Positions 3,312 through 29,198 of a DNA stretch of 29,198 nucleotides are shown here, piece by piece. The position numbers were made by a program, and so were the translations under genes. Within the stretch, counting starts at the first letter, position 1. Each line of letters opens with the position of its first letter. The notes beneath the pieces are model-generated. The model saw nothing but the letters and a program-made list of their open reading frames with translations. It had not been told where the DNA came from and ran no database searches. Source of the stretch: Candidatus Helarchaeota ASGARD archaeon Hel_GB_B (GTDB taxonomy: Archaea > Asgardarchaeota > Lokiarchaeia > Helarchaeales > HEL-GB-B); the NCBI GenBank assembly GCA_005191425.1, contig SUPR01000038.1, positions 1-29,198 of the forward strand, given 5' to 3'.

Positions 3312-3566
3312 ATGAGATTATTTAAAAAACTTTCGGACTATTTTGAAACTAATAGATACCAACACATAATACCAGCGGGTTTTGATTATAAGGACTTAGA
3401 AGAATTTCAATCAGTTCTTTTTAAAGAACATGAAATTGCAAGAATGAAGTATGATGAAACAAATAATAATGATTTTGCTGATATTGCTATTGATTGTTTG
3501 GTAACAATAAATCAATTGGAGCGGTTAAAACTTCGCACATTGATAAAAAATAAATTAGATTGGTAA
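3312..3566 (+). CDS. Small hypothetical protein (84 aa, predicted helical)
   Basis: ATG-started ORF filling the gap between the helicase and the convergent DUF362 gene; plausible charged composition; no family recognised. Confidence 0.6.
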   Translation: MRLFKKLSDYFETNRYQHIIPAGFDYKDLEEFQSVLFKEHEIARMKYDETNNNDFADIAIDCLVTINQLERLKLRTLIKNKLDW

Positions 3567-3627
3567 ATTTTTTTTTCCTTTTAAACTTTTGTTTAGAACA
3601 TTAAAAATGGCTTGATTTAATTGAATT

Positions 3628-4806
3628 TTATTCGTGTCTTATTTTATTAAGCTGCTGTCCTGGTAAGAGATCTGATGGATATTTTTTAAACAGTTTACCC
3701 CATTCAGTTTTATTATATTCTTTAATTCTTTTCCTGCCTACTGTATTAATCCAATAGAGGTCATGATAAATTGTCGAGAGCATAACTGGGCCAACATTAA
3801 AAAGCCAAGTATGTAATAAGGGCTCAAGAAATTTTAGACGTCCCTTTCTGACCATCTGGTCACCCCAAATTACAAGACTTCTTTTTACTTTAAATCCCCA
3901 ATTTACCTTCTTATAGTCAATACCATCATCTGTTATAATTTCGATTTGGTCAATATCGCCAACACCAAGTCCTTCATCATGTGCGAGTTTTATAAAGGGC
4001 AATTTTAAAGGGTCAAACCCCATGATACTAGCAGCTACTGCATCGACAGCTACTTGGTCATATCCCGCCATTATAATATTCTTAATTCGCGGTATCATAC
4101 ACCTGGGCCCTTCACCATCTCCTGCTACAGTTCCATCTACGATTGCCATTATATTTGGATGTATTTGCTTTTGTATTATTAATAAATCAACAAGTACTTC
4201 ACTCATATACTGGTGGGAAAAATGCCGTCTTTTTGTTAATAGCCCACCAAATGCATTTTTCATAGCGCAAGTAATTCCACCACCAGTTTCAGGATTTTCA
4301 CGGCTAAATTTTCCACCTTTTGCTCCTGTATGACCATGCGTCTTAAAGGTAGGTAAATGCATAATATTTTTCCCTATATAAAATGCTGGAATACTGAAAC
4401 CTTTTGGGAAAATAACTGAATCAAGGACATGGAGTGGGATCTTACTTTTAAATGGTATAAATTTTACTCGTGTAAGTGGGACAAAATAGCAATTATATTT
4501 ACTTATTATTGGTTTCCATTTATTACCGTTTAGACCTTTTGATATATTTGTTACAACTGTTCTATTTTCGGCTGTAAAAATATTTTCACCTTTAAAACCA
4601 TCTTCTCGTAACTTTTTTAATACTCCTTCTACCTGCCATGGCGGTGATGAACATGCCGGAAAATATTTACTCCATGACAAATTTAATTTTACTATTAATT
4701 TCTTTTTAGGGTCAAAATGTTTAGTATAATTTGTCATGTCCATTAAATCTGCGTAATCTTTTAAAATAGTCTCTGCAGTTACTTTCTTTATATATATTTT
4801 TGGCAT
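3628..4806 (-). CDS. DUF362 domain-containing putative Fe-S protein
   Basis: VKLNL near N-terminus, HLPTFKTH, T-C-AMKNxFG, DGTVAGDGEGP and DxVAVDAVAAxIMGFDP motifs typical of DUF362. Confidence 0.85.
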   Translation of the reverse strand: MPKIYIKKVTAETILKDYADLMDMTNYTKHFDPKKKLIVKLNLSWSKYFPACSSPPWQVEGVLKKLREDGFKGENIFTAENRTVVTNISKGLNGNKWKPIISKYNCYFVPLTRVKFIPFKSKIPLHVLDSVIFPKGFSIPAFYIGKNIMHLPTFKTHGHTGAKGGKFSRENPETGGGITCAMKNAFGGLLTKRRHFSHQYMSEVLVDLLIIQKQIHPNIMAIVDGTVAGDGEGPRCMIPRIKNIIMAGYDQVAVDAVAASIMGFDPLKLPFIKLAHDEGLGVGDIDQIEIITDDGIDYKKVNWGFKVKRSLVIWGDQMVRKGRLKFLEPLLHTWLFNVGPVMLSTIYHDLYWINTVGRKRIKEYNKTEWGKLFKKYPSDLLPGQQLNKIRHE

Positions 4807-5177
4807 TTTCTATTCCTTCTTAATTCTACGGGAAAAATTTCTTAGAAAGTTCTCTATCTTTACTTTCTATATATTTTTTATTTTAATTATTTTTTTAAAT
4901 TAATAGAATGTTAATTTTACAATCAATGAGGAATTTTATTTCAATATTTAATAATATATTTTTTCTTGAAAAAATTTTCTAAATATTTCTAATTGCAAAA
5001 ATTTTTGATATTTTGTGTAGTTGATTTCAAATCTATTCTTTTTAATCTTTTATAATATTTATTTTCATAAAAATTAATACATAGATTAAGAAAAATATAA
5101 AAAAATATTAATTTTTTAAATTCATAAAATATTTTAAAATTGATAATTTAAAACCTTTTCATTGGAGCCGAATAAAA

Positions 5178-6437
5178 ATGTCATCGGATTATATAAACCC
5201 TGATTATATAAGATATGAAGATTTAGACCATGTATATGGCGAATCTATGTTCCCTGGAAGCTTATTTCTTTATACAAAAGAAGAAAATGAGTTTCGGACT
5301 AACCTTCGTAATTTTATTATGGACGAAATTGCACCGTTAGTCCCTGAGATCGAAGAGAAAGCGAGTTTTGACCTATGCTTGGAAGCTTATCATCGACTTG
5401 GAAAAGCTGGATATTTAACATTCTCATTTCCCAAATCTATAGGTGGTCAAGGTAAAGGATATGTTTATAGGACAATATTTGGTGAAGAGTTAGCTGCTGT
5501 TAATAGTGCAATTGTTGTAACTTATGGAGCTTCAGCAAATCTTTTTGCTGCTCCGATAATTCACTTTGGGACAGAAGAACAAAAAAAGAAATTTCTAAAA
5601 CCAATTATGAATGGTGAACTTTTAGGTGCAATTGGAATAACCGAACCATCTGCTGGGAGTGATGCTGTTGGTGGAATGAAAACAACTGCAATAAAAAAAG
5701 GTAATGTCTATGTTATTAATGGCGAAAAAAGATATATTACCAATGGCTCTAGAGCTGATTACATTTTATTATATGCACTAACAGATCCGAACGCTCCTAG
5801 GAAACATAACGGAATAAGTGCCTTTATCTTTCCCACTGATACGCCTGGATTTGAACGAGTAAAAGATTATGAACTTGCTGGACGTCGTGGATCAGTCAAT
5901 TCGCAATTAAGATTCCATAATTGTGAAGTACCGGCAGAGAACCTTGTAGGTGGCCCTGAAATGGAGAATAAAGGAATAAAAATAATGATGTATGGACTTG
6001 ATGGAGAACGGTGCTTTACATGTTCTCAATATGTTGGAATAGCCCGTACTGCATTTGAAATTGCCACCAAATTTGCAAATATTAGAGTACAATTCAAAAA
6101 AAGACTGCGCGATTTTGAAGGTATTAGTTTTAAAATTGCTGAAATGTACGCAAAATTAGAAGCAGGTAGATTACTTATGTTAAGAGCTGCTAGAATGCTT
6201 GATAATGGACTCAATGCAACAAAAGAAGTGGCTGCTGCTAAATTTACTTGCGCCACAAATCAGATGGAAATAGTTGTCGAAGCAATGCAAATATTGGGTG
6301 GAATTGGTTATACAAAAGAATTTCCATTAGAACAGCTCTTCAGAGACTCCAAGATATCTCAGATTTCTGCTGGTACTGTAGAAATACTTAAATTCTTGTG
6401 TCAAAGAGAAATCTACAAGGCATTTAACTTAAAATAA
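5178..6437 (+). CDS. Acyl-CoA dehydrogenase (isovaleryl-CoA-dehydrogenase-like catalytic layout)
   Basis: ITEPSAGSD, NGEKRYITNG, QILGGIGY, FRDSKISQISAGTVEI; upstream GGAG RBS. Confidence 0.95.
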   Translation: MSSDYINPDYIRYEDLDHVYGESMFPGSLFLYTKEENEFRTNLRNFIMDEIAPLVPEIEEKASFDLCLEAYHRLGKAGYLTFSFPKSIGGQGKGYVYRTIFGEELAAVNSAIVVTYGASANLFAAPIIHFGTEEQKKKFLKPIMNGELLGAIGITEPSAGSDAVGGMKTTAIKKGNVYVINGEKRYITNGSRADYILLYALTDPNAPRKHNGISAFIFPTDTPGFERVKDYELAGRRGSVNSQLRFHNCEVPAENLVGGPEMENKGIKIMMYGLDGERCFTCSQYVGIARTAFEIATKFANIRVQFKKRLRDFEGISFKIAEMYAKLEAGRLLMLRAARMLDNGLNATKEVAAAKFTCATNQMEIVVEAMQILGGIGYTKEFPLEQLFRDSKISQISAGTVEILKFLCQREIYKAFNLK

Positions 6438-6768
6438 GTATTTTCTAAAATACATAAAAAATTTTTAAAATATAATTATTAATTTATTAAAAGTTATGGA
6501 CCCCAACCCCTTAACTGAAGAATATCCCTATATCATTCATTTAGGTCCAAAGTTATTCAATATAACAAATTTCACTTTTTATATCTATTATTTTTTTTTA
6601 ATAATTTTAAATTATTTCTTTATTATCAATGCATTTACTTACTCATCCCCCATTTTTTAAATTTTCTATAACAAATATAATTTTCATTTTCTAGGAATTC
6701 ATAGAAAAATATTATAATTATTATTACCCATATTTTATAAGTGAAAAATTTAATTTTACTTATTTTTA

Positions 6769-7878
6769 GTGAATGAAATGTATGATGAAAAAGAAAAATT
6801 AATCGCAATAAGAAATATTGTCAAGAAATCAAAAATATATTTTTATAAAGAAGTTATCCTTTTTATTGATAAATATCTAAATGGAGAAATTCCTCCAAAT
6901 TCCATTATAGATAAATCTAATATTTCTGCTATTTTAAATATTGATAAAATAAAAGTTTCAAAAATTCTAAGTATTCTCAAGAAATTAGGGGTCATCGAGA
7001 AAATTGGTAATCAAAAATATTATTTAAAAAAAGTTAGTGATTTCAAAAACATTGCAAAAAATTGGGTAATGGACTCAATATCAAATGATTTAGATGATTT
7101 AAATTTATTGTTCAATGAACATAGTCAAATCACTTTTTTCCAAAATTTGGATTTATTAGCAGGGTATTCTAAGAGCAATGAACTTATTAGTACGCTCAAT
7201 TTAAACAAAAACATATATCAAGAAAATTGTTTATGTGAATTATTATTTAAGGAAAATTGGGACGGTATCCCAAACTCGCACAAAGATGTTATTGATGGGA
7301 GCATTTCAAAATATATTTATGAACTTTATCATACAAAATATTTGATTCTAAAAAAGAAACTAGATTCTTTATCTAATGATCCCTATTGTAGTGGCAAATT
7401 CTATTATATCACCTGTCTTAAGCAAATTAAAAACATTTTTTTCCCTCAATTTATCGATAGCGTAAAACCATTGCCAAAAAAAAATAGGAAAACTTTAGTC
7501 TATTTACTTAATAATTTTAGAGATGGTATTTATGAATTCAAGAGATATTTCGATAAAAATAAATTCATGTTAATAATAAACACATCTTTCGATAGATTTA
7601 ATGGCCCCATGATACTTGTTGATAATTATTTTTTACAATTATATTATGAAGATTATTATTCTCCAATAAATTCATCGATTCTATATTTTAATAACCCACA
7701 TATTTCCAGAATAATTTCTGATAAATTTATAAAATTGTTTTTGACGCTATTTCGTCATGAAATTGCTCAGTTTAATATATTTTCAGATTTTGATAAAATG
7801 TCTGGAAGTGAATACGGCAATTATTTATATCAGTTGGCTATAAAAGTCTTGGACAATTATATTGAGAAAATAAAATAA
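6769..7878 (+). CDS. Putative transcriptional regulator: N-terminal winged HTH (GntR-like) plus unassigned C-terminal domain
   Basis: LNGEIPPNSII...VSKILSILKKLGVIEKIG resembles the GntR wHTH pattern; GTG start, alternative ATG at 6778. Confidence 0.55.
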   Translation: MNEMYDEKEKLIAIRNIVKKSKIYFYKEVILFIDKYLNGEIPPNSIIDKSNISAILNIDKIKVSKILSILKKLGVIEKIGNQKYYLKKVSDFKNIAKNWVMDSISNDLDDLNLLFNEHSQITFFQNLDLLAGYSKSNELISTLNLNKNIYQENCLCELLFKENWDGIPNSHKDVIDGSISKYIYELYHTKYLILKKKLDSLSNDPYCSGKFYYITCLKQIKNIFFPQFIDSVKPLPKKNRKTLVYLLNNFRDGIYEFKRYFDKNKFMLIINTSFDRFNGPMILVDNYFLQLYYEDYYSPINSSILYFNNPHISRIISDKFIKLFLTLFRHEIAQFNIFSDFDKMSGSEYGNYLYQLAIKVLDNYIEKIK

Positions 7879-7902
7879 AAACTTAATAATCTTCTTTATA
7901 CT

Positions 7903-8712
7903 TCAGTTGATTTCAATCTTTTTTTTCCAAACAAAAAAGTATGTTAGAATACCCGCAATTATAATTCCTGCAATTACAATATAAATTCGAGGATCATCCA
8001 AATCAAATGGAATTAGATTTAAAATTGGTAAATCAATACCATTTAATCGGAATGAATTATAAAATTGTTCATTCATAAAATCTTGAACTACTGAATAAAT
8101 CCCCAAATATAATACCATATTGCTCATAATTCCAACAAATGACTTTATCTTTTTTATTCTTATCCAATTTATGCAATATGATATTAATACAATTGAAATA
8201 CAAATATAAAACCCTTGGTATCCGTGGTGCATTCCCAAATGGACTGCCGGATAGTTATTTTCCCATGGAATTTGTTGTTTGCTCATAAAAAAATTTAGTC
8301 CAGGAATATCCCCAATAAAAATTCCTATTAGAGCAAATATCCAAGGTAATGAAACAAAAGTTAAACAGATAGTCGATATTATTCTAAACTTATCATTATA
8401 GAATGGTTTAATAACTTTTTGTCCAATTCTATAATTTTCTTTATATTTTGTTGAAAATTTTTTATTAAAAATTATGTGATCAATTATTAAAATGACCGTG
8501 AATATAATTGGAAGGAGACCTAATGTATCTAATGTGTCCAATGCCCATTGAAATCCTGCATTTATAGTTCCATAGGGTAAATGCCCTATCATTGCCCAAT
8601 CGTCATTGATTAACCAATAACAAAAAAATGTTGAAATAACTGAAAAAAGCATAAATATCCACATTAATATCACTGCCACTTTATACCTTTTAGGTGTATT
8701 CTCAATGTTCAT
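7903..8712 (-). CDS. Multi-pass membrane protein with His-rich motif
   Basis: About 6 hydrophobic segments; VHLGMHHG and QDFMNEQ motifs. Confidence 0.8.
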   Translation of the reverse strand: MNIENTPKRYKVAVILMWIFMLFSVISTFFCYWLINDDWAMIGHLPYGTINAGFQWALDTLDTLGLLPIIFTVILIIDHIIFNKKFSTKYKENYRIGQKVIKPFYNDKFRIISTICLTFVSLPWIFALIGIFIGDIPGLNFFMSKQQIPWENNYPAVHLGMHHGYQGFYICISIVLISYCINWIRIKKIKSFVGIMSNMVLYLGIYSVVQDFMNEQFYNSFRLNGIDLPILNLIPFDLDDPRIYIVIAGIIIAGILTYFFVWKKKIEIN

Positions 8713-8870
8713 AATTTATTTACCTCTAATTTTTATAATGATTTATAATATCCTTTATTATATTATATCAATTCTTTTTTTTTTAATATATAATTATATT
8801 TTCATTTAAAAAAGAGTCATTTTAGTAAAAAAATTTTTTATTCATAAAATTTTAGATACTTTTTAATTAT

Positions 8871-10298
8871 GTGATCGATATGTGGAAAAGATTATTATTA
8901 ATAAATACTAACATTTGGAGCAATCTAATTACAGATAATTTTAATTTACCACCTTTAGGATTAGAATATTTAGTTTCATATGTAAGAGACTTAATAAAAG
9001 TAGAAATTCTTGATGCACGGAATTTTCGTATGAGTTATCAAAAAATTGAGAATTATATCAAGAGTTATAAACCAGATATAGTGGGGATTAATTGTAATTT
9101 TACATGTGGAATAAATGCTGCATTTGAAACAGCAAGATTAGTAAAAGAGAAATATAATCCAGAATGTCCTGTAATATTTGGAGGTTGGCATCCTACCTTA
9201 AAGCCCGATGAATGTTTGAAAAATCCATGGGTCGATGCTATAATATTAGGAGAAGGCGAGCTGACTCTAAGAGAATTGATTAAAAAAGGTAGTTTTGAAA
9301 ATGTGGATGGTATTTTTTATAAAAAAGAGGGAAAGATAGTACATAACAAAGAACGGCAATTAATAGAAAATTTGGATGATTTAAAATTCCCATATCGTGA
9401 AAATCGTAAATTTAAAAAGTTTCAAATGTTTAATATCCCAGTTGATACAATTGAAACTTCGCGAGGGTGTCCCCATACCTGCAAATTTTGCTGCATTCAT
9501 GTGTTTTACAGACATAGATGGCGGCCTAGATCGCCCCTTAATATAATAAAAGAGCTATATGAAATTAGAAAAAATAGTAATGTTAGAGATATTTTGATAG
9601 TAGATGACAACTTTACAGTTAATATGAAGCGAATAGAAAAATTATGCAAATTAATAATTAAAAGTAAGCTTGATTTTCACTTTATATGTCAAACAAGACT
9701 TGATAGCATTGCAAAAAACCCTAAGATTGTAAGGTTAATGGCAAAAGCAGGATTTTGGCTTATGTTTGTGGGTATAGAATCCATTACAAAAAAGGGCCTC
9801 ACGGACGTCAATAAAAAAATTAATGTTGAAACTATTCATAAAGCTATTAAAATATTACACGAAAATCACATTATTATTGTAGGAAATGTCATTATTGGGG
9901 CAGATTTAGATGAAACAGAAGAAGATATTATGAAAAATGTAGATAATATTAAAAAATTACAAGTCGATTTTATGAGTTATTCTATTTTAACTCCTCTGCC
10001 AAGTACAAAAATTTTTGAAAAATTAGAAAATGAAAATTTAATTATAAATAAAAATTGGGCTGATTATAATTTTAAAAATGCGGTAATAAAAACACACCAG
10101 TTAACTCCAAAAGATTTAACCAGAATTACTCGGTTAGTAAACATTAATGCTGCCTTACATAGGTCAAATTTAAATCTATTCAGAAAGCTTTCAAAATCAA
10201 GAGGAATATTATTCATTATAAAAAACGGGATAAATTCGGCACTTGACATAATCAATATATTTTTAAAGGCAAAACTTGCAAAACGACAAACTAAATAA
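8871..10298 (+). CDS. B12-binding domain radical SAM protein (class B methyltransferase-like)
   Basis: N-terminal PPLGL...DIVGI...GGWHPT...GEGE cobalamin-binding fold; ETSRGCPHTCKFC (CxxxCxxC); VDDNF, GIES. Start may be the ATG at 8880. Confidence 0.92.
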   Translation: MIDMWKRLLLINTNIWSNLITDNFNLPPLGLEYLVSYVRDLIKVEILDARNFRMSYQKIENYIKSYKPDIVGINCNFTCGINAAFETARLVKEKYNPECPVIFGGWHPTLKPDECLKNPWVDAIILGEGELTLRELIKKGSFENVDGIFYKKEGKIVHNKERQLIENLDDLKFPYRENRKFKKFQMFNIPVDTIETSRGCPHTCKFCCIHVFYRHRWRPRSPLNIIKELYEIRKNSNVRDILIVDDNFTVNMKRIEKLCKLIIKSKLDFHFICQTRLDSIAKNPKIVRLMAKAGFWLMFVGIESITKKGLTDVNKKINVETIHKAIKILHENHIIIVGNVIIGADLDETEEDIMKNVDNIKKLQVDFMSYSILTPLPSTKIFEKLENENLIINKNWADYNFKNAVIKTHQLTPKDLTRITRLVNINAALHRSNLNLFRKLSKSRGILFIIKNGINSALDIINIFLKAKLAKRQTK

Positions 10299-10487
10299 TG
10301 CCTTATACGAAACAAAAAGTCAAAAATAGCCAGTCCATGAATTTTATGTTTATTAATTTTTGGCTTGAATAATTAAAAACATTTATTATTTAATCTAATT
10401 CCGGCCAAATTTTCAATTTTTAATGAAAATAAAGATGAGTTAATTAAGCATTTAATCGATTTTAAAAAAAGAGAGATAAAACTGAAG

Positions 10488-13052
10488 TTAAACTACATTA
10501 CAGAATTCTGTTCTTTCTATTATATCATCTTGAATTCTTTTGCCAAGTCTGACAAAGTATGCAGCGTATCCTGAAACTCTTACAATCAGATCTTCATAAT
10601 TTTCGGGATGTTTTTGTGCATCCTTCAAGGTATCTGAGTCTATAATATTAAATTGAATATGATATCCTCCCATATCAAAATAAGACAGGATTAAAGATTC
10701 TAATGTCTCAACACCCTTCTCTGAATTAAGTAATAATGCAGGAAATTTCATATTTAATGAATTTCCAAATCCAATTTTTGTATGATCAATTTTTGCAAGA
10801 GAATTGAGCGTAGCTGTTGGTCCATTAGTTTCTGCGCCATTACTGGGTGAAATACTGTTTGAAAAAGGTTCTCCAGCTTTTCTTCCATCTGGGGTTGCCG
10901 GTTCAAGCGCTCCCTCGTAGACATTAAGTCCATAAGAAATAAAGCTGCTTTTAAAGTGTCCACCTCTTCTTAACTTCCGATGAAAGACCATATCTGAAAA
11001 TTTATCTACAAGTTCTACAGCAATAGAATCTACATAATCATTATCATTACCAAATTTAGGTCCATTTCTAAGCTTTTGCATGAGTATTTCATTATTTTTA
11101 AAATTATTTTTAATTGCATGGACTAGGTCCTTCATCTTAACCGACTTTTCATCATAAACAAATTTTTTAATTGCTGCTAACGAATCTACAGCGGTTGCTA
11201 GTCCACCACCACCCACAACACCAAATTTATAAAGTGCCCCTCCTGCTGTCATATCTTTGGCGTTTTCAATACAACCATCAATTGTACATGAAATTAATGG
11301 GTTATGATACTTTTCTGCCCAAATATCATCTCTTATGTTTGTTGCTTTAGTACATATTGATACCACATGTTTCATTTGTTTATAATAAGCGTCCATAAAT
11401 TCATCAAAACTTTTGAACTGTGTGGGATCTCCAGTATCTATTGTATCAAAATTTCCAAAAAAGGTAGTCCTTCCACGATTAAAAATTAAATCAATTATCG
11501 TTGGAAAATATTCTTTTGATCCACCTGTCGCACCAAAAGTATCACCATTACCATTAGGTTCAACACAACCAACAATACAATAATCCCTTGCTGCTTCGAG
11601 TGAGTATCCATCTCTCATTAATGCTTTAACAGTAATTTCATCGTTGAAGAACGCAGGACCATTGGTGTGTTTATGGAGCTCGACAATTTTTCTAATATAT
11701 TCTTTTGGGGATGTCTTTGAAATTCTAAAAGAGACCGAAGTCGCCAATTTTGTATTTCTAACGGCATCAATAAATAAATATGTTAATTCGTTTACAGCAT
11801 CGTTTCCATTTTTATCTATACCACCAAGAGTTATGTTCTCAATATCTGAACCTAAGTGGTTTAAATTTACACCCATAATATTTGGCCAAATTACTACATT
11901 GTTATTAATTTTTATAATAAATTCTTCAATAAGCCTAAGTGCTTCGATTTCCGTAATTTTACCAGATTCAATATCCTTTTTATAAAACGGATATAATAAT
12001 TGGTCGACTCTACCAGGTGTTATACCACTTCCTGCTCCATAACTTATAATTACAGCATTTTGAGTAAACCATAAAGATTGTAAAGCTTCATAAAATGATT
12101 CTGGTGGATTCCAAGGTACTTTTTTACAAATATTTGATATTTCCTGAAGCTCTTTCCTTCTTTCGAGGTCTTTTTCAGTTCTAGACTTTATTTCGGCCAG
12201 GTTGGAAAATCGATCACTAAAATTTTTAATGGCATTACAAACTATTTCAACAGATTTAAGAAAATTTATTTCGTCATCATTTGAGGCAGTTTTTAGTCTT
12301 ATCAAAGCTTTTTCTTTAATTCCTTTAAATCCATATTTGAGGACATTTTTATGACCAACAACTATATGGGCTTGTGTATCTATACAACGTCCTCTACCTT
12401 TAATATTATCAGCAGATCCTCCTTTTATGGCTTCTATCATACTTGGAAGTTTGATTATTAATTTTAATATGTTTTCATACTTTTTTAACTTGGCTTTTAA
12501 CCCTTTATTTGTATTCGTTATTGAATTTTCTCTTTTAATCATAGAAATAAAATTATTTAAATCAAAAGCATGTAATTTTCTCAAAATTTCCTTTAAACTC
12601 AAATTTAATTTACTACTTATCCCCGCTTTTTCAAATCTAGAAATTTTAATATCTCTTACTGTTTTTCCCTTCCAATAAGGTAAGATTTTTTTGAATAATA
12701 ATTTTTCATCTTCTGGAGATATAATATATCCGAATTTTTTTAAATCTGGTAAGAGGTATTTTAAGACATAATTAATATCACCCCTTTCAGGAGCAAATGG
12801 AGGTGCAATAAAGTGTGACGCCCTATTTCCAACAAGCTTTTCTTCATCATATATTTTTATAGTCATATTCTCAAAGGTCTTTTTAAGAGCTTTTGCGGCT
12901 TGAATTGATGGATGTTCTCCTTCTGTTTCTTGATATGATTCTGTATAATATTTTGCTCTTTCCATACATAACCAATGAGGTGATGTTAACAATCGCTTCT
13001 TATGGATTTTATTTTTGGGGTGTAATTCTGGTGAGACTATTAATGATTTCAT
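10488..13052 (-). CDS. Glycyl radical enzyme (PFL2/glycerol-dehydratase-like superfamily), substrate unknown
   Basis: C-terminal Gly loop LIVRVSGY, single-Cys loop IVGCVEP, GRVDQLLYP, ERAKYYTESY N-terminal motif. Confidence 0.93.
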   Translation of the reverse strand: MKSLIVSPELHPKNKIHKKRLLTSPHWLCMERAKYYTESYQETEGEHPSIQAAKALKKTFENMTIKIYDEEKLVGNRASHFIAPPFAPERGDINYVLKYLLPDLKKFGYIISPEDEKLLFKKILPYWKGKTVRDIKISRFEKAGISSKLNLSLKEILRKLHAFDLNNFISMIKRENSITNTNKGLKAKLKKYENILKLIIKLPSMIEAIKGGSADNIKGRGRCIDTQAHIVVGHKNVLKYGFKGIKEKALIRLKTASNDDEINFLKSVEIVCNAIKNFSDRFSNLAEIKSRTEKDLERRKELQEISNICKKVPWNPPESFYEALQSLWFTQNAVIISYGAGSGITPGRVDQLLYPFYKKDIESGKITEIEALRLIEEFIIKINNNVVIWPNIMGVNLNHLGSDIENITLGGIDKNGNDAVNELTYLFIDAVRNTKLATSVSFRISKTSPKEYIRKIVELHKHTNGPAFFNDEITVKALMRDGYSLEAARDYCIVGCVEPNGNGDTFGATGGSKEYFPTIIDLIFNRGRTTFFGNFDTIDTGDPTQFKSFDEFMDAYYKQMKHVVSICTKATNIRDDIWAEKYHNPLISCTIDGCIENAKDMTAGGALYKFGVVGGGGLATAVDSLAAIKKFVYDEKSVKMKDLVHAIKNNFKNNEILMQKLRNGPKFGNDNDYVDSIAVELVDKFSDMVFHRKLRRGGHFKSSFISYGLNVYEGALEPATPDGRKAGEPFSNSISPSNGAETNGPTATLNSLAKIDHTKIGFGNSLNMKFPALLLNSEKGVETLESLILSYFDMGGYHIQFNIIDSDTLKDAQKHPENYEDLIVRVSGYAAYFVRLGKRIQDDIIERTEFCNVV

Positions 13053-13526: not shown

Positions 13527-14765
13527 ATGGAAGTAAATTTATTGAAAAAAGATATGGATTTTTTTTCCGATTTCCAAATAGAAAAGTGTAACATTTGTGG
13601 GAAATGCTTCAATGAATGTCCAGTTCTAAAATTACCCATAGATGAATCTATTGCTGAAATGAAACGTATTTTAGCTGGGAATGAAACTAAAGTTGTTTTA
13701 CAAAAATGCCAGAGTTGTTTTTATTGTAATTTAATTTGTCCAAATGGTGCAAATCCAGCTCAATTAATATTGCATAGGTGGTATCAATATTATCAAAAAA
13801 ATGGGCTACCAATGTGGGCTAAGTATTATAATACATTAGATAATCCAAATTTCAGAAGTTATACATTAGCAATGCGTGGAATTCCAAAAGATGAACGCAA
13901 ATTATATGAAAAATGGAAAAATTTAGACCCCGTAAAAGGGACATATTGTTATCCTGGTTGTAATGTATATACTGCTGCATATTTAACAGAAACTAGTTTA
14001 TTTAAGGACCTAGAAATACGTTATTCATTGGATTTCTGTTGTGGCGAAACATTTTATAGGACTGGTTTATTTGATCAAGTTAAAGACCAGACCCAACGAT
14101 TAAATAAATATTTTAATAAATTGGGAGTTAAAGATATGGTCGTTTTATGCACTGCAGGTACTAATGTCTTTAAAAATATTTTACCTCGATTTGGTGCAAA
14201 ATTCGATTTTCCTATTAAGTCATATTTAGATTATTTATGGGAAAAAATAGAAAATGGTGAAATTAAATTAAAAAGGCAAATATTAAAAGGGATAAAGGTT
14301 ACAATCCAAGATTCTTGTTATTCTAAATTTTTTGGTGAAAATTATATTAATATACCAAGAAAAATACTAGAAAAATTAGGCGCCACTATTGTTGAAATGA
14401 AGAATTCCCGCGAATGCACAATCTGCTGCGGTATTGCAGGCGGATTTAGCCCATATTCTGGATATTTTCCTCTTGACCTAATAAGAGCAACACTTTCTAG
14501 GCTTAGAAATGCAAAGAAGACTGGAGCAAAAATGCATGTGGTGTATTGTGCTGGATGCCTACAAATGTTTTATGTAGTAAAATTACTTTATCCACCAGCA
14601 TTGCCAGTATATCATATTATTGAATTACTTCAATTATCTATCGGAGAAACCCCCAAAAGAAGAGAATTCAGGCGAGCTATTTCATTTTTTCTTGGGATCA
14701 TAATAAAACAATTTCCTTTACTTTTATCAAGGAAAAGGTATAGATTACCTAAAATCCCACATTAA
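13527..14765 (+). CDS. HdrD/GlpC-like Fe-S oxidoreductase subunit (4Fe-4S dicluster plus CCG domains), paralog 1
   Basis: CNICGKCFNECP, CQSCFYCNLICP; YPGC, FCCG, QDSC, ICCG, YCAGC. Confidence 0.88.
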   Translation: MEVNLLKKDMDFFSDFQIEKCNICGKCFNECPVLKLPIDESIAEMKRILAGNETKVVLQKCQSCFYCNLICPNGANPAQLILHRWYQYYQKNGLPMWAKYYNTLDNPNFRSYTLAMRGIPKDERKLYEKWKNLDPVKGTYCYPGCNVYTAAYLTETSLFKDLEIRYSLDFCCGETFYRTGLFDQVKDQTQRLNKYFNKLGVKDMVVLCTAGTNVFKNILPRFGAKFDFPIKSYLDYLWEKIENGEIKLKRQILKGIKVTIQDSCYSKFFGENYINIPRKILEKLGATIVEMKNSRECTICCGIAGGFSPYSGYFPLDLIRATLSRLRNAKKTGAKMHVVYCAGCLQMFYVVKLLYPPALPVYHIIELLQLSIGETPKRREFRRAISFFLGIIIKQFPLLLSRKRYRLPKIPH

Positions 14766-14780
14766 GCCGGTGCGAATAAA

Positions 14781-16130
14781 ATGAAAGAATTTGTTTTAAA
14801 TGATTTTTTTGATATAGACAAATGTGATCAATGTGGTATTTGTCTAAATAAGTGTCCAGTACTCTTATACCCTATTGAAAAAGCAAAAATAGAAATAAAA
14901 AAATTAATTAATTTAGAAAAAGCCGAAGTAATTTTGAAATGTCACAGTTGTTTTAGCTGTAATCTATATTGCGACAAAAATTGCAACCCATATAATTTAA
15001 TTTTATTTAATTTTTATACCAGATATGTAGAAAAAGGCATCTCACCAATAGCAAAACTTGTCCTTCCAAATGAGAAATATAATTTATGGACAGGACTTGA
15101 GTTTCTATTCTCTAAAAACGAAAATGAAATAATAAATAATTGGGATAAAGAGTTTACTAAACAATTTTTATTAATGGGCTGTTTCACTCAATTCTTTCCA
15201 TATTTAACCGAGAGTAATATTATTAAAGATATCAAAAAACGAGGCACAGAAAAACTTTGGTGTAATGGTGGGCATATCTATCAATTAGGGTTGTTAGACA
15301 TTGTAGACCAAATAGGCAATATGACAATCAATGAATTTAAAAGAAAGAAGGTCGAAAAAATAATTACTTTTATGGAAGCAGAATATTCAATGATTAAAAA
15401 TATACTACCCAGATTTGGACACAAAATTGATATTGAATTAGAAACGTTATCTCAATACCTTTTAAAAGAAATAAAAAATAATGACCTTAAACTTACAAAA
15501 AGATTAAAAAGTAAAGTCACAATCCACGATAATTGTTTCTCTAAAAGTTTGGGCAGTGAATCTTGGGATACAAACAGGCAAATATTGAACGAACTAGGTC
15601 TAAAGATTATTGAAATGGAACATAATAAAGAAAATGCGACTTGTTGTGGCTTTGGAGCAGCCTCATATAGTTTTAATGTCCTTGACATTATGAAACAATC
15701 TTATATACGCTTAAAAGAAGCCGAATCCACAGGTGCCAAAGCATTAATAGTTTATTGTAGTGCGTGTCTGTTTATTTTTTCTGTAGCCAAAGAATTATTA
15801 AATATTAAGCTTCCTATATTCCATATTTTTGAGCTAGTTCAATTTGCTACTGGTGAGACCCCCAAGCATAATCAATCAAAAAGGTCATGGGATATAATTT
15901 CAATTTTCACCGTTCAGATGCTTTTAAACCTATTTTCAAAAAATTTTAAAATAAAAACCATTGATTCTAATAAAACATGGAGTTTTTCATCAATATTAAA
16001 ATTTAAAATACTTAAATTGTTAAATAAATTGTTTCATTTTCGAATGGTAAGAATTTTCTACTCAAAATTATTTAAAATACTATTAAAATTATATAATAAT
16101 ACAGATATTCCTTTAGTACTCTTATTCTAA
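14781..16130 (+). CDS. HdrD/GlpC-like Fe-S oxidoreductase subunit, paralog 2, with long hydrophobic/basic C-terminal tail
   Basis: CDQCGICLNKCP, CHSCFSCNLYC; HDNC, TCCG, YCSAC; first CCG degenerate (WCNGG); 15 nt after paralog 1. Confidence 0.88.
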   Translation: MKEFVLNDFFDIDKCDQCGICLNKCPVLLYPIEKAKIEIKKLINLEKAEVILKCHSCFSCNLYCDKNCNPYNLILFNFYTRYVEKGISPIAKLVLPNEKYNLWTGLEFLFSKNENEIINNWDKEFTKQFLLMGCFTQFFPYLTESNIIKDIKKRGTEKLWCNGGHIYQLGLLDIVDQIGNMTINEFKRKKVEKIITFMEAEYSMIKNILPRFGHKIDIELETLSQYLLKEIKNNDLKLTKRLKSKVTIHDNCFSKSLGSESWDTNRQILNELGLKIIEMEHNKENATCCGFGAASYSFNVLDIMKQSYIRLKEAESTGAKALIVYCSACLFIFSVAKELLNIKLPIFHIFELVQFATGETPKHNQSKRSWDIISIFTVQMLLNLFSKNFKIKTIDSNKTWSFSSILKFKILKLLNKLFHFRMVRIFYSKLFKILLKLYNNTDIPLVLLF

Positions 16131-16300
16131 GTCATTAACATTTAAAATTCCCATATATAATCTGTTTATATTTTAAGCTCTTTTATTTTTTTAAGTACAT
16201 TTCCACTTAAATTCATAATTTTATTAACAATTATAAATTTATATATCAAAAAGTTTAATATTGATTAATTTATTTATGCAATTCTAATAGAGGGTTTAAG

Positions 16301-17071
16301 ATGTACTCTTTTACGTTTAGCCTAATGAAAAATGCTAAAATTGAAAATGTGAGAATCAAGAAACGACCTTATATTTTTAGAGGAGTTTTTATGAATTTAT
16401 TATCTAAAATTGACTCTTCATTGGTAGACTCTCTTCATGTTCCAAATAAAATACGGCCATATTCTATTAAATTGTTATATTCTGAAAATGGCATCGAATT
16501 TATTTTAAACATTTTTAACCAAGATTTATCGGAACAGATATTACTGCATATTCTTGAAATGAAGGAGCAAGAATTAAACATTGGTGGTACTGATTTTATT
16601 ATCAAAAATATAAAATTAGAAACAAAAAAAATTAGTAATTTTATCAAAAATTCATATCGGATAATAAAATTTGAAATTCAGTTTAAAACTCCAACTTATT
16701 TCCAGAAGAAAGGTTCAGAAATGACAATTCGTTTTCCTAGCCCTCTGTCCATATTTACCAATTTAGCTCATTTATGGAACCAATTTGCTACTGGAGATTC
16801 TCACTTGGACTTTACAGATTTTTATGATTGGGTGGATAAAAATATTTACCTTACAAGTTATAAGCTAAAAACACAAACAATCGACATCGGGAAAAAGTCT
16901 AGACCTGTTGGTTTTATTGGATGGGCAAAATTCGTCAATTTAGATCCTAATAATGGGTTCTCAAATTGGATTGATGCTTTATGCAGATTTGGTGCTCTGA
17001 CTAATTTAGGAGGAAATAGAACAGCTGGTTGTGGAATGATAGAATATTCCCCAATAGAATTCCATGTTTAA
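16301..17071 (+). CDS. cas6: CRISPR-associated endoribonuclease Cas6, stand-alone
   Basis: LH...RPYS N-terminal motif, FKTPTYF...FPSPLSIF..L..LWNQF, GFIGW, C-terminal G-rich loop NLGGNRTAGCG; GAGGGT RBS upstream. Confidence 0.88.
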   Translation: MYSFTFSLMKNAKIENVRIKKRPYIFRGVFMNLLSKIDSSLVDSLHVPNKIRPYSIKLLYSENGIEFILNIFNQDLSEQILLHILEMKEQELNIGGTDFIIKNIKLETKKISNFIKNSYRIIKFEIQFKTPTYFQKKGSEMTIRFPSPLSIFTNLAHLWNQFATGDSHLDFTDFYDWVDKNIYLTSYKLKTQTIDIGKKSRPVGFIGWAKFVNLDPNNGFSNWIDALCRFGALTNLGGNRTAGCGMIEYSPIEFHV

Positions 17072-17305
17072 AACAATTAAATTTTTAATAATGAAATAAA
17101 TACAACAAAAATTTTAAAACATAACCAAACTATTCTTAAAGTCTTATTTATCTATATCAATTAAATCAATAATATTTTAAAATTTTTTATAAAAATAAAG
17201 CGTTTTTTAATATATATAAGAAAAATATATGTTTAGAATGTTCTGTTATAATCATTGAAAAAAATAATATGATAATTTATTAAATTTTATCGTAGATTAT
17301 TTAAT

Positions 17306-18439: not shown

Positions 18440-18802
18440 ATGAGTTTAGTGGACGAAGCAAAAAAGGTATTAACTGAACTTGGAGAAAAAGTTAATATTC
18501 TTGGATCGGCAGTTATACGCACAAATGGGCTAATGATTGTTTCATCACTCCCTAGTGAATCGAATGAACGAATGATTGCTGCTATGAGTGCGGCATTATT
18601 GGGAACTTCAAAAAGAACCGCTGAAGCATTATTTAATGGCAATTTTAGAAGTTTAAATTTAGAAATTGATAAAGGTAATATGTTTTTAATTGGCGCCGGT
18701 AAAGTAATCTTAGTTGTTTTAACTGATGTTGCGCCTAATGTAGGTTTAATAACATTAGAAATGGAATCCGCAAGTGAAAAATTAAGTAAAATATTTGGGT
18801 GA
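18440..18802 (+). CDS. Roadblock/LC7 (MglB-like) domain protein
   Basis: SAVIRTNGLMIVS...IAAMSAALLGTS..TAEAL...LEIDKGNMFLIGAG..ILVVL...NVGLI pattern; 120 aa. Confidence 0.92.
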   Translation: MSLVDEAKKVLTELGEKVNILGSAVIRTNGLMIVSSLPSESNERMIAAMSAALLGTSKRTAEALFNGNFRSLNLEIDKGNMFLIGAGKVILVVLTDVAPNVGLITLEMESASEKLSKIFG

Positions 18803-18809
18803 TTTAAAA

Positions 18810-19268
18810 ATGTCTGAGCAATTAAAATTTATTGCAAGCATGTTCAAGATGTGTATGAGCGAATTTGATATGGTTATGGGCCCTGAGACCATTATGACAA
18901 TTTTCCGTCTTATTGGTGAACGTCAAGGAGAAGCTATTGAAAAAAGAATGCGAGAAAAATTCAATGTTAAAGAATGGACTCCTTCTGATTTTGCAAATTA
19001 TATAGTAAAAGATGTTTTTGAACCAGCTTTAGGTGAAGGTGGTGCTGAAGTCATAGTTTCAAGTGATAATGAGCTTATAATAAAATTCAAAATTTGTCCA
19101 TTTGAAAAAGCAGGTATTGACATATCTAAAAAATTTTATTGTACTTATACCGAAGGTTTAACAGAAAATTCAGCAAAAAAAGCATTTGGGGATGCGGAAA
19201 TTATAAGCGAGGACTTAAAATCTAATGGCGCGCCTATTTGTACTATTAAAATTAAAATTAAACAATGA
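18810..19268 (+). CDS. V4R-like / methanogen output domain 1-like protein
   Basis: GERQG helix, FKICPF, FYCTYTEG and GAPICTIKI Cys pattern. ATG 18810 preferred over TTG 18795 because GGGTGA lies at 18797-18802. Confidence 0.7.
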   Translation: MSEQLKFIASMFKMCMSEFDMVMGPETIMTIFRLIGERQGEAIEKRMREKFNVKEWTPSDFANYIVKDVFEPALGEGGAEVIVSSDNELIIKFKICPFEKAGIDISKKFYCTYTEGLTENSAKKAFGDAEIISEDLKSNGAPICTIKIKIKQ

Positions 19269-19279
19269 TTGAATGAAAA

Positions 19280-20032
19280 ATGATCCAAAATCTCTTAATA
19301 TTAAAAAAATCTGGTGAAAATATTTACCATAAAGCATTTGGCCACTTTGACATGGACGAAACAGTTATGTCCGGCTTTTTTTCAGCTTTTTTTGTTTTTT
19401 CGCAGGCATTATGTGGCACTGATATAAATACAATGGAATTAGGGACTAAATTCAAAATTGTATTTGATAAAGCAATACATAAAAATAATGAAATAATTTT
19501 CGCAGCAATTTGTGATGTTTCTGATAGTATTATTAATGTTCACAAGACATTGGAATCTATTAAAAATTATATTATCTTCAAATATGGTGAGAAAATAAAT
19601 AAAGTTGGTTGCGATTTAAAATGTTATAATGACCTCGATTCTTTTATTGAAAAAATCATATATACCTCCCAAGAACTTGACATTGATAGAGAACTTTATA
19701 AAAAGGCTAAAGAAATTTTAAAAGATCTTGATGCCAATGATGAAATATTAGACAGCGCCCTAATTTCGTCAACCGGTGTTACATCTTCCACTGATAAAGA
19801 TAAGGAATTTTTAAATTTAATGATTAAACAGATGGATGCTTTTTTTAAATTAACCAAAAGAGTTCTTGATCAAATAATTTTAAAATTTCAAAATAGATAT
19901 ATTATTTTATATCATATAAATGAAAATTTAATTATCTCTTCTTTAACTAAAAAGAATGTTCAAATTGGTATAGCTACTCTTTTAGTTGAAGAAGCTGCAA
20001 GTAAAATCGCTAAAATCTACAATAAACATTAA
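19280..20032 (+). CDS. Longin-domain (N-terminal) plus roadblock-domain (C-terminal) fusion protein
   Basis: MIQNLLILKKSGENIY...MSGFFSAFFVFSQAL...IIFAAICD is a longin-like pattern; ILDSALISSTG...DQIILK...IILYHINENLIISSLTKKNVQIG is a roadblock-like pattern. Confidence 0.75.
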   Translation: MIQNLLILKKSGENIYHKAFGHFDMDETVMSGFFSAFFVFSQALCGTDINTMELGTKFKIVFDKAIHKNNEIIFAAICDVSDSIINVHKTLESIKNYIIFKYGEKINKVGCDLKCYNDLDSFIEKIIYTSQELDIDRELYKKAKEILKDLDANDEILDSALISSTGVTSSTDKDKEFLNLMIKQMDAFFKLTKRVLDQIILKFQNRYIILYHINENLIISSLTKKNVQIGIATLLVEEAASKIAKIYNKH

Positions 20033-20056
20033 AAACTAATATTTTGTGATATTATA

Positions 20057-20473
20057 ATGGGTTTAATTTCTAGATTAAAAGAATTTTTCACGGGAAAACC
20101 TATCGAAACATTTCAGGAATTAGAAAAAGATATGAATAAACTGTATAAAAAATGTAATTGTAGTTTAATTGCTTTTGTAGGTGTAGCTTCTAAAATTAAA
20201 GGTTTACCTCTTATTTATTCGGCTGATAATGAGAATAATGTCCGATTATTTTCCGCTAAATTGCCTCTAATAATTAATCCATTGAAAAATTTTCAAGAAA
20301 CCAAGCCTATTGATTCTATTAAAATTAATTACAATAATGAATTTATTTATTTAAAACCGATATTAGATAACATTGCTTTTATTGCGATGTACAATCAAAA
20401 ATCTGATTTTTTGACGATTAATCAATGGTTAGACAATAATTTTTCTATTTTATTAAATCTTTTTAAAAAATAA
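20057..20473 (+). CDS. Roadblock/profilin-like fold protein with N-terminal amphipathic helix
   Basis: MGLISRLKEFF start; SLIAFVG...GLPL...IDSIKINY...IYLKPILDNIAFIAM strand/helix order resembles roadblock; last gene of a tight operon. Confidence 0.55.
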   Translation: MGLISRLKEFFTGKPIETFQELEKDMNKLYKKCNCSLIAFVGVASKIKGLPLIYSADNENNVRLFSAKLPLIINPLKNFQETKPIDSIKINYNNEFIYLKPILDNIAFIAMYNQKSDFLTINQWLDNNFSILLNLFKK

Positions 20474-26014: not shown

Positions 26015-26767
26015 TTAAATTAATAAAAACAAAAAATATATCATTAAGAGATTACCTACCAAAATCCCAGCTCTTTTATGGACATTTTTTGGTGTAATTT
26101 GTTTTCTAAACAAAAATAAAATTCCAATTGGTATTGTGATTAATGGTAATAAGTATAAATCGAATAATAAAAACGTCCCTACCAAGCAAAAAATAATTGA
26201 TATGAATGAAAAAATAAGAATTACAAATCTTGATAATTTTATTTGGTATTTTCTAAATGCCTCTTGATCCGAAATTTCGTGAATTATTTGACCTGCTATT
26301 GAAAACATAAAAACTCCTAAAATTATGTTAATCTGTCCGAAAAATGTTGGTTCTGATATATTTGGAATTTTTACCATTAAATATGGAAAAACTATGTAGG
26401 AAAACACGAGGACAAATTTGTTTATAATTGCATATTTTTTAATTTTAAAGCAATATAAAACAACTAAAATTGCACTTGTAAAGAAAAATATCAAATTTAA
26501 TATGTTATAAATAAATGATTCTAACATTAATAAAAATCCGAATAAAAAAGAAATTAAAAAAAAGGCAATTAATTGGTTTTTCGAGAATTCTAAAGACCTA
26601 TCTTGGTCCTTAATATCATTTAAAAGGTTTCCACAAATTCCAAAAAATATCCATCCCCCAATAAATTTTATATAATTGATAATTTCTAAATTGTTGATAT
26701 AGATTGCTAAAAGGATCGAAGTCAAAACAGAAAACAAATATTCTAATCTTAATGTTTTAAGGATCAT
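26015..26767 (-). CDS. UbiA prenyltransferase family protein
   Basis: N-terminal KTLR, first Asp-rich motif NLLNDIKDQD, degenerate second motif HEISDQE, about 8 TM helices. Confidence 0.8.
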   Translation of the reverse strand: MILKTLRLEYLFSVLTSILLAIYINNLEIINYIKFIGGWIFFGICGNLLNDIKDQDRSLEFSKNQLIAFFLISFLFGFLLMLESFIYNILNLIFFFTSAILVVLYCFKIKKYAIINKFVLVFSYIVFPYLMVKIPNISEPTFFGQINIILGVFMFSIAGQIIHEISDQEAFRKYQIKLSRFVILIFSFISIIFCLVGTFLLFDLYLLPLITIPIGILFLFRKQITPKNVHKRAGILVGNLLMIYFLFLLI

Positions 26768-27666: not shown

Positions 27667-28876
27667 TGATGATTTAATTTTAGAAGATTACGATTTAGAA
27701 CCCGGGAAAAAAATATTAATGGGAAATATAGCAATGGCTGAAGGTGCAATAGCTGCTGGGTGCAGGTTCTTTGCGGGCTACCCAATAACACCACAAAACG
27801 AAGTTCCACAACATTTGAGTCAAAGACTTCCAGAAGTTGGTGGCAGATTTATCCAAATGGAAGATGAAATTGGAAGTATTAATGCAGTAGTCGGTGCTTC
27901 ATTTGCTGGTCTAAAAGCAATGACGTCGACTTCAGGACCTGGTTTTTCGCTTATGCAAGAAACCATTTCAATGGCAGCAAACAATGAAATTCCCTGCGTT
28001 ATTTGCGATGTACAAAGAGCTGGGCCAGGGTCTGGTATTGTATCTCTTCCTCATCAATCAGATGTTATGCAAGCTCACTATGGCGGAAATGGTGAATATA
28101 TTTTACCTACATTTGCTCCTTCTACATGTCAGGATCTTTTTGACTTTATGATGGACGCTTTTAATACAGCTGAAAAATATAGAGTACCAGTTGTAGTCTT
28201 ATCTGATGCATTTTTAGGACATAATCATGAGCAAGTGATTATTCCCACTGCTGATGAAATTCGTAAAAAAATTATTCCAAGAAGAAGAGTGCTTCTTGAT
28301 GATGATGGAAATATCCTAAACCCAAAATCTTATCGACCATTTACTTATGAAGATCCTAGTAATAGAGGACATTATATTATCCCACCCCCACCAGTTTTAG
28401 GAACTGAATATCATCCAAACTGGATGCCTACCGTTACTCACACCCCTGATTCAATTGCCTCTGAAGATCCATATGTTAGCACTAAAGTTAATGAAATGAT
28501 TACTTATAAAATAATTTCAAACGCTGATAAAATTTGTAAAAATGACCGCCGCTGGCTAGATGACAGTAATATCGCTGTTTTATGTTATGGGCTACCCTAC
28601 AGAACTGCAATAAAAGCTGTTAAAGACGCACGAGATGAAGGAATAAAAGTAGGGATTTTTCGATTACGTGTAGTTTGGCCTTTACCAGAAAAAGAAATTA
28701 AGGAAGTTGCTGAATCCGTTGACACAATCCTTGTCCCTGAAATTAATTTAGGACAAATATTAACCTACGTAAAAGCAATAGGTGGTTGCGATGCAAAAAT
28801 ATTACCTATTACGGCTATAGGCAGACTTCACGAGCCTAAAGAAATATTAGCAAAAATAAAGGAGGTAAATAAATAA
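27659..28876 (+). CDS. korA: 2-oxoacid:ferredoxin oxidoreductase alpha subunit
   Basis: GNxAxAEGA, FFAGYPITP, QMEDEI, TSTSGPGFSL, VQRAGP. ATG 27659 preferred over TTG 27650 (GAGGT RBS at 27646-27650). Confidence 0.93.
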   Translation: MINDDLILEDYDLEPGKKILMGNIAMAEGAIAAGCRFFAGYPITPQNEVPQHLSQRLPEVGGRFIQMEDEIGSINAVVGASFAGLKAMTSTSGPGFSLMQETISMAANNEIPCVICDVQRAGPGSGIVSLPHQSDVMQAHYGGNGEYILPTFAPSTCQDLFDFMMDAFNTAEKYRVPVVVLSDAFLGHNHEQVIIPTADEIRKKIIPRRRVLLDDDGNILNPKSYRPFTYEDPSNRGHYIIPPPPVLGTEYHPNWMPTVTHTPDSIASEDPYVSTKVNEMITYKIISNADKICKNDRRWLDDSNIAVLCYGLPYRTAIKAVKDARDEGIKVGIFRLRVVWPLPEKEIKEVAESVDTILVPEINLGQILTYVKAIGGCDAKILPITAIGRLHEPKEILAKIKEVNK

Positions 28877-29198
28877 TGGCATTATTACCAACTTATACTA
28901 TTGAAAAACCAGACCATCCATATGGTAAAAATACATTTACTGGACTACTCAGTGGTCATACCTTTAATTTATTCTGTCGAGGTTGTGGTTATGGTACAAT
29001 AGCTCATTTGTTTACGCGCGTCTGGGAAGATAATGGTCTAGACTTAAATTATCCTAATATAGTTGGTGTTGGTTGTTATTCAATGATCCCCCTAGTGCTA
29101 CCAGGTCATAAGAACATGGCACTTCATGGTAGGGGAATTGCTGTTGCAACTGGACTTAAATTAGCAAATCCCGATCTTAAGCCAATTGTCTGGGAAGG
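28876..29198 (+). CDS. korB: 2-oxoacid:ferredoxin oxidoreductase beta subunit (partial, runs off the window; absent from the ORF track)
   Basis: Translated by hand: MALLPTY...FCRGCGYG...GVGCYS...LHGRGIAVATGLKLANPDLKPIVWEG; TAATG stop/start overlap with the alpha gene; GGAGG RBS at 28861. Confidence 0.92.
   Translation, partial: MALLPTYTIEKPDHPYGKNTFTGLLSGHTFNLFCRGCGYGTIAHLFTRVWEDNGLDLNYPNIVGVGCYSMIPLVLPGHKNMALHGRGIAVATGLKLANPDLKPIVWE

Follow-up and report, generated by a model that had tools for sequence, protein, structure and literature searches.

The DNA analysed here (the window: the entire contig C116, 29 kb or 29,198 nucleotides) carries an intact cas6 gene which stands among metabolic genes and for which neither a CRISPR array nor any cas partner was found in the assembled genome. 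The encoded protein is a new member of the known Cas6 family in a relic-like state, an observation that is correct and of an ordinary kind. Tentatively, the gene is read as a recent remnant of a type I-B locus that has been lost; it is most likely a genomic relic of an ordinary kind rather than an enzyme put to a new use.

The window protein is an intact Cas6 with a conserved predicted active site

Cas6 is a metal-independent endoribonuclease, and the hallmark of the family is a sequence-specific cut in CRISPR repeat RNA, 8 nt from the 3' end of the repeat. By sequence as well as by fold, the window protein is a genuine Cas6, and it displays every feature of the family that can be assessed in silico. 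It matched the Pfam family PF10040 (CRISPR_Cas6) with an E value of 4.9e-14 and 53.3 bits (cut-off 25), as well as ten Cas6 models of PADLOC, the best being Cas6_IIIa (E 5.2e-22); no NCBIfam model matched. Searching the PDB by sequence, the sole significant match was Streptococcus thermophilus Cas6 (6fjw; residues 33-248). From 627 relatives of the window Cas6 gathered by an exhaustive search, 62 sequences were taken into an alignment (A1), which served as input for an AlphaFold2 model with a mean pLDDT of 95.3 and a pTM of 0.91. This model shows the order beta-alpha-beta-beta-alpha-beta twice, predicting the two tandem ferredoxin-like (RRM) domains that are expected of the Cas6 family. Foldseek comparison of the model with the PDB returned Cas6 proteins as all of its best matches (E down to 2.6e-19), headed by 6fjw (TM 0.78/0.83), 4c9d and 4c97 within a TM range of 0.72-0.83, and further matches comprised T. 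thermophilus Cas6A and Cas6B as well as Sulfolobus, Pyrococcus and type IV Cas6.

The ortholog alignment favours the M1 start (ATG at 16301) rather than the start given by the 248-aa database call, and over its whole length the protein can be aligned with its closest relatives, without truncation or motif-breaking indel. A full-length cas6 with its own ribosome-binding site had been described in the original prediction, which agrees with the intact frame and the Shine-Dalgarno-like GAGGG motif that precedes it (Table 1). No record of this same protein was found on other contigs.

Table 1. Coordinates of the cas6 gene, its predicted functional elements and its flanks in the window
Feature	Position	Strand	Description
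cas6 ORF	16301..17071	+	256 aa plus stop; full length; tandem RRM fold (model); 0 internal stops/frameshifts
Shine-Dalgarno-like GAGGG	16290..16294	+	6 nt before ATG; read from sequence, putative function
R27 codon	16379..16381	+	position of TtCas6A Arg22 / TtCas6B His23 (scissile-phosphate contacts); profile alignment to 4c98
H46 codon (predicted catalytic His)	16436..16438	+	equivalent to TtCas6A His37 / TtCas6B His42
Glycine-rich loop N235-G245 (NLGGNRTAGCG)	17003..17035	+	aligned with G-rich loops of 6fjw and 4c98
Upstream intergenic region	16131..16300	.	AT-rich; no repeat-like or cas-derived sequence
Downstream intergenic region	17072..17305	.	AT-rich; no array remnant

According to Niewoehner et al. 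(PMC3902920), the active sites of the T. thermophilus enzymes are formed by Arg22/His37 in TtCas6A and by His23/His42/Tyr256 in TtCas6B, and the leaving group is protonated by the His. R27 and H46 of the window Cas6 were placed on TtCas6B His23 and His42 by profile-to-PDB alignment, correcting a 4-residue tag offset of chain 4c98. H46, in the motif SLHVP...RPYS, aligns with the His of TtCas6B 'KLHEA', that is His42, and is conserved in 58 of the 62 sequences of alignment A1; this is the N-terminal His whose retention had been noted before, and it is predicted to be the catalytic His after helix alpha1. The R27 position holds R in 51 of the 62 family members. Since an Ala occupies the position of TtCas6B Tyr256, the predicted active site resembles that of TtCas6A. 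By analogy with the latter enzyme, H46 would protonate the leaving group and R27 would hold the scissile phosphate, with the glycine-rich loop binding the repeat RNA.

That C-terminal loop, corresponding to the family pattern GhGxxxxxGhG, has G237 and G245 invariant and R240, T241 and G243 near-invariant among the 62 sequences (G243 in 60 of them), whereas position 235 is N in 51 and G in 8. The loop sequence had thus been read correctly in the original prediction, but not its first residue, which had been taken for a substitution: in the alignment, Asn235 is the subfamily consensus, a clade variant instead of a lesion, and therefore gives no hint of altered specificity. All invariant or near-invariant positions are kept (H46, F128, P131, P146, G204, G207, L227, G237, R240, T241, G243 and G245). 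On the basis of the model and these residues, the window Cas6 looks structurally and catalytically competent.

The closest orthologs reside in type I-B loci of related Asgard archaea

The nearest homologs of the window Cas6 are P0002, P0003 and P0004, from Helarchaeota/Promethearchaeota MAGs, which are 57-59% identical over the full length and are named 'CRISPR system precrRNA processing endoribonuclease RAMP protein Cas6' by NCBI. Together with the window protein they form one clade (support 99/99), and they have in common with it the motifs FRG, LH...IRPYS, TPTYFQKK and NLGGNRTxGCG. The difference lies in the surroundings: the orthologs sit beside cas1-cas2-cas4, cas7b-cas8b or cas3b, in all three cases with the cas neighbours within ~2 kb, whereas for the window gene neither a cas neighbour nor a partner elsewhere in its genome was found. 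In the ortholog loci, the order is cas1-cas2-cas4-cas6 (L002), cas7b-cas8b divergent from cas6 and followed by a two-repeat mini-array (L003), or ISL3 transposase, cas6, cas3b (L005). From these contexts it follows that a type I-B locus is the normal home of this Cas6 lineage in related Asgard archaea.

CRISPR-Cas genes also accompany more distant homologs. One of them (L006, 40% identity) adjoins a csa3-like gene and cas4-cas2-cas1, another (L004, 29%) lies in a type IV csf locus, a third (G026, 41%) has a true array after it, and the fourth (G003, 41%) has cas1 and cas7 on the same contig. The terminal branch of the window Cas6 measures 0.33 substitutions per site, compared with 0.34-0.41 for the orthologs embedded in I-B loci; these orthologs are at most 59% identical to the window cas6, and synonymous sites are saturated.

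The distribution of CRISPR-Cas in the group is patchy. Cas1 matches were detected in 7 of the 41 relatives' genomes, and a 2026 survey of 1006 Asgard genomes reported CRISPR-Cas in 27% of them (PMC13700489). The genome of the sister species in the same genus (G001) showed no match to cas6, Cas1, RAMP or DevR-Cas7.

No CRISPR array or cas partner was found in the assembled genome

Since the window is a whole contig, with 16.3 kb from cas6 to its left end and 12.1 kb to its right end, the distance of about 12 kb on either side within which the original prediction had seen no array or other cas gene is bounded by the contig ends. Up to both of these ends the statement is true for the scanned set of ORFs (90 aa or longer, except 26015-26767 and 28876-29196). 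The absence of a repeat-spacer pattern, which had been noted for the two intergenic flanks, extends to the whole window, where no direct-repeat family or array-like tandem repeat was found. Both flanks are short and clean, with neither a cas pseudogene nor a degenerate repeat, so that no direct trace of a locus deletion can be seen, and blastn of the flanks against the genome gave only short AT-rich matches. No transposase, integrase or repeat borders cas6 in the window, and the GC content of the gene (0.296, compared with 0.277 for the window) is like that of its neighbours. The Pfam matches of these neighbours agree with the earlier placement of cas6 between metabolic genes. They include a DEAD/MrfA-type helicase, DUF362, an acyl-CoA dehydrogenase, a B12-radical-SAM protein and a PFL-like glycyl-radical enzyme, and further window genes encode two CCG/4Fe-4S proteins, a Roadblock/LC7 cluster, YdjM, a B12-binding protein, the ATPase of an ABC transporter and POR; the remaining scanned ORFs had no Pfam match.

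No homologous cas6 site, either empty or occupied, was found in relatives when the sister species G001 was compared, because synteny breaks beside the Roadblock operon and because the CCG neighbours belong to a paralog family with 19-30 matches in each genome of this order. In G001, synteny is confined to the Roadblock operon (18440-20473), the CCG neighbours have no clear ortholog and a 235-aa neighbour gene has only paralog-like matches of 29% identity. The CCG neighbours themselves (13527-16130, + strand) are two tandem CCG-domain/4Fe-4S genes, HdrD/GlpC-like, of this strongly expanded family.

The genome (G000) is a MAG of 3.54 Mb in 182 contigs with 28% GC, 93.7% complete and 4.9% contaminated. 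k-mer periodicity scans over all 182 contigs revealed no CRISPR array. Periodic k-mers on C7, C36, C61, C73, C80 and C95 were rejected as arrays, being coding tandem repeats of Pro-rich, LRR or coiled-coil type whose periods are multiples of 3. Profiles for Cas1 (PF01867), Cas2 (PF09827), DevR-type Cas7 (PF01905), Csh2/Csd2-type Cas7 (PF05107), Cas5 (PF09704) and Cas3-HD (PF18019) had no match in the MAG, but matched in control genomes; likewise, the RAMP profile (PF03787) matched in controls and in the relatives G026, G040 and G009, but not in the MAG. When Asgard Cas1/Cas2/Cas4 (two sets), Cas8b, Cas7b, Cas3b and Csf1-3 from the relatives' loci were used as tblastn queries, no partner was found, and the only matches were cas6 itself and a Csa3-like regulator of 29% identity.

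Thus, none of the components of a working type I-B system (cas8b-cas7-cas5-cas3, a cognate array and cas1-cas2(-cas4)) is found in the 93.7%-complete MAG, and the RAMP subunits of a type III system (Csm3-5 or Cmr1, 3, 4, 6) are equally missing in the PF03787 search, with Cas10 left out. The stand-alone status that the original prediction had given to cas6 consequently holds for the whole assembled MAG, and the type I/III loci elsewhere in the genome that it had named as evidence to the contrary were not detected in the assembled 94%. With a MAG of this completeness and number of contigs, the absence of partners is valid for the assembled genome and falls short of proof.

Candidate cognate repeats for the window Cas6 are known only from relatives, and the two CRISPR repeats found beside their cas6 genes, a 37-mer from L003 and a 37-mer from G026 ending in ATTGAAAG, were used as probes. 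The G026 repeat had no match in the MAG, and the L003 repeat gave only two AT-rich matches with 10 mismatches each, taken as chance. A search with a strict regular expression for a type I-E-like repeat likewise had no match. At the contig ends, no sequences in a repeat-spacer arrangement were observed, only multi-copy mobile-element termini or long overlaps common to several ends; the fragmentation of the assembly is not explained by arrays.

A GC-rich 38-mer common to six contig ends was discarded as a CRISPR repeat, since it is part of the ~135-nt terminus of a multi-copy mobile element. This terminus, whose GC-rich core CGGGATAGAGGCGTTTGGGGTCACGCCAGTATCTGTTC has 12 matches at no more than 5 mismatches, lies at the left ends of C35, C95, C110, C111, C120 and C148, with internal copies on C9, C18, C19, C93, C99 and C119, and accounts for several of the assembly breaks. 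The left end of the window has roughly 100 nt in common with C105, C152 and C63.

Orphaned CRISPR-associated genes decay in the same clade and genome

Single-sequence scans of metagenome and genome contigs for relatives of the window Cas6 found nothing, nor did a scan of the genome contigs with a clade profile; a profile-guided scan of metagenomes yielded L042. This contig (gene at 1751-2296) and L043 (324-872, protein P0005), both from JGI metagenomes, carry a cas6 of the same clade, 55% identical to the window Cas6 and 74% to P0003, in which the first ~85 residues are missing, including the N-terminal RRM with the catalytic His. The L042 copy has a TAA within the conserved TPTYFQKK motif, and the L043 copy, from a strain 96.6% identical to L042, has the same truncation and no stop. 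These genes share with the window cas6 not only the clade but also a position between non-cas genes, in their case a coiled-coil gene and an epimerase gene, and differ in being truncated where the window gene is whole. Orphaned copies of this Cas6 clade do occur and decay.

A second CRISPR-associated gene is stranded in the window's own genome. The only match to Csx1 (TIGR02221, CARF-HEPN), on contig C120 (8027-9258; 1307-2538 in L035), is frameshifted, with 111 aa in one frame and 318 aa in another that overlaps it, and thus represents a type III accessory gene that is both orphaned and broken.

Origin and fate of the orphan cas6

The results are best accommodated if the window cas6 is a young relic, a reading that may well be right and that draws on the I-B ancestry of the gene, the failure to detect partners both here and in G001, the decaying orphan of the same clade and the broken csx1. 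The rest of the system, comprising cas8b-cas7-cas5-cas3, cas4-cas1-cas2 and the array, would have been lost in this organism, and cas6 would remain as a recently orphaned gene surrounded by metabolic ones, possibly still expressed, most likely without a cognate substrate and heading to decay. Both the loss within this lineage and the present lack of function of cas6 are what we infer. Against this reading stand the two clean flanks, which show no trace of a deleted locus, and the intact ORF in a genome of 28% GC, where neutral drift makes stops quickly; we estimate one stop per ~12 codons in random sequence of this base composition. Taken together, the intact frame and the unaccelerated branch indicate either that orphaning was very recent or that the gene is still under selection, and they keep alive two other explanations, a Cas6 acting in trans and an exaptation. 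The original prediction, which had offered a distant array or a repurposed enzyme, was right about the stand-alone status of the gene, but its list of options had missed the relic of a lost I-B locus, the best supported of all.

A Cas6 acting in trans, with its array and a I-B/III effector locus in the ~6% of the genome not assembled or binned, is rather unlikely, although the fragmentation of the MAG leaves it room, arrays and defence islands being often badly assembled or binned, and an intact gene with an unaccelerated branch and its own SD-like motif is what would be expected of a working gene. The remote enzyme would then process the pre-crRNA of that locus, in the manner of stand-alone Cas6 from I-A, I-B and III systems. 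Types I-A and III Cas6 are free enzymes that serve several complexes (PMC5965381). However, this explanation needs not only an atypically detached cas6 but also a bin from which all cas contigs are missing. The closest orthologs have their cas genes within ~2 kb whereas here 16 kb on the left and 12 kb on the right contain none, the 3.54 Mb gave no match to any cas family or Asgard Cas protein searched, contig ends lack repeat units with assembly breaks explained by IS-type elements, cas6, Cas1, RAMP and DevR-Cas7 had no match in the sister species, and the type III accessory gene csx1 is broken. Acquisition of cas6 alone or with a fragment, by HGT or transposon relocation from another Asgard archaeon and never with partners, would fit with its absence from the sister species, with the ISL3 transposase directly adjoining cas6 in L005 and with the several copies of the ISL3 family in G000. 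It is nevertheless the most improbable of the explanations, given that no mobile element or repeat borders the gene, that its composition matches the host and that the nearest known relative, only 59% identical, leaves no recent donor identifiable.

We also give a low probability to an exaptation in which, after the loss of CRISPR, Cas6 was selected to bind or cleave cellular non-CRISPR RNA or to regulate by RNA binding. Intact near-invariant residues, the absence of rate acceleration and the embedding among housekeeping and metabolic genes at a host-like GC content are all compatible with it, and non-canonical regulatory roles have been described for Cas6 (PMC12102369). Conversely, there is no ortholog in the same-genus genome G001, no conserved synteny, no orphan ortholog that several species have kept (apart from the window gene, the clade has a single known orphan, which is in decay), no repeat-like candidate substrate found in the genome and no residue change that hints at altered specificity, the loop Asn being the clade norm. 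That selection is maintaining an intact Cas6 of I-B lineage so that it can process or bind RNA of the host must be doubted at least as strongly. Nothing found here requires an exaptation, and the earlier idea of repurposing gains no supporting evidence from these data. The substrate that had been proposed along with it, the element at 546-695, showed no link to Cas6: it is single-copy, unlike the relatives' CRISPR repeats, and lies 15.6 kb away.

This element (+ strand) is a GC-rich island in AT-rich intergenic DNA with a multi-stem fold closed by a 15-bp helix (MFE -57.5 kcal/mol, z-score -5.9). No Rfam family was found in the window at gathering thresholds, and weak matches around the element, far below the gathering score of each family, were treated as chance; the element is a candidate unclassified structured RNA.

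Comparison with known Cas6 enzymes and significance

Orphan cas genes, like partial loci, are well known; such orphans are left behind as CRISPR-Cas systems are frequently gained and lost. In Pyrococcus furiosus, with seven arrays and three effector modules, Cas6 (PDB 3I4H and 3PKM) is encoded away from the effector operons and serves several systems. The window Cas6 resembles it as a relative in fold (Foldseek) and in the fact that a free enzyme need not sit in an effector operon (PMC5965381), but differs in that no arrays or effector modules were detected in its genome. With S. thermophilus Cas6 (6FJW) and T. thermophilus Cas6A and Cas6B (TTHA0078 and TTHB231; PDB 4C8Y, 4C97, 4C98 and 4C9D) it shares the tandem RRM fold (TM 0.72-0.83; E 2.4e-14 by sequence alone and 1.7e-34 with a profile), whereas identity is only 15-22%, its loop starts with Asn instead of Gly, and those enzymes have known arrays and effector complexes. 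The term 'standalone Cas6' is used in reviews for an enzyme free of an effector complex, not for one that is genomically orphaned (PMC5965381), and stand-alone CRISPR modules have been noted in many genomes (PMC6452270). A literature search for genomically orphaned cas6 found no dedicated study.

The window thus adds a cleanly documented case of an orphan cas6 for Asgard archaea, and two stages of one trajectory, an intact and a truncated orphan, can be seen within one Cas6 clade. It also calls for caution, as lone cas6 annotations in MAGs should not be read as evidence of CRISPR immunity or used for linking viruses to hosts. Should selection for non-CRISPR RNA prove true, the gene would represent a rare natural case of Cas6 recruited to the RNA metabolism of its host, and would offer a compact tool for RNA processing.

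Other Cas6- and Cas1-related genes in relatives

A distinct clade of Cas6-like proteins of 289-291 aa was observed in sister families, ~33% identical to the window Cas6 and with an insertion near residue 215. Its members (G007:C59, L028 6534-11701; G040:C70, L029; G009:C36, L033; G017:C41, L034; G023:C297, L015) often have no adjoining cas genes and recur beside a protein of ~718-734 aa with only a weak 'mad8' match. In G007, which is 99% complete and has no Cas1, RAMP or DevR match, the gene lies beside an intact Csx1. The clade may be a conserved non-canonical Cas6 module, and its frequent occurrence away from cas genes and next to the ~720-aa protein hints that exaptations might exist in this class.

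Cas1-domain matches (E 1e-10 to 1e-5) were also detected inside open frames of 1474-2772 aa in order-level relatives (G005:C6, C7, C11 and C1; G006:C87 and C14; G002:C38), which could represent giant Cas1-fusion proteins or casposon-like elements. Finally, the Logan contig L004 carries, at 2142-10825, csf1, the RAMP gene csf2 and csf3, followed by a PAPS-reductase-like gene and the Cas6 of 29% identity to that of the window. Upstream of this type IV-like module lie genes for an integrase, a DUF3440/PAPS-reductase and a ParB-like protein, and the whole probably represents a type IV system that is carried by a mobile element and has Dnd/PAPS-reductase accessories.
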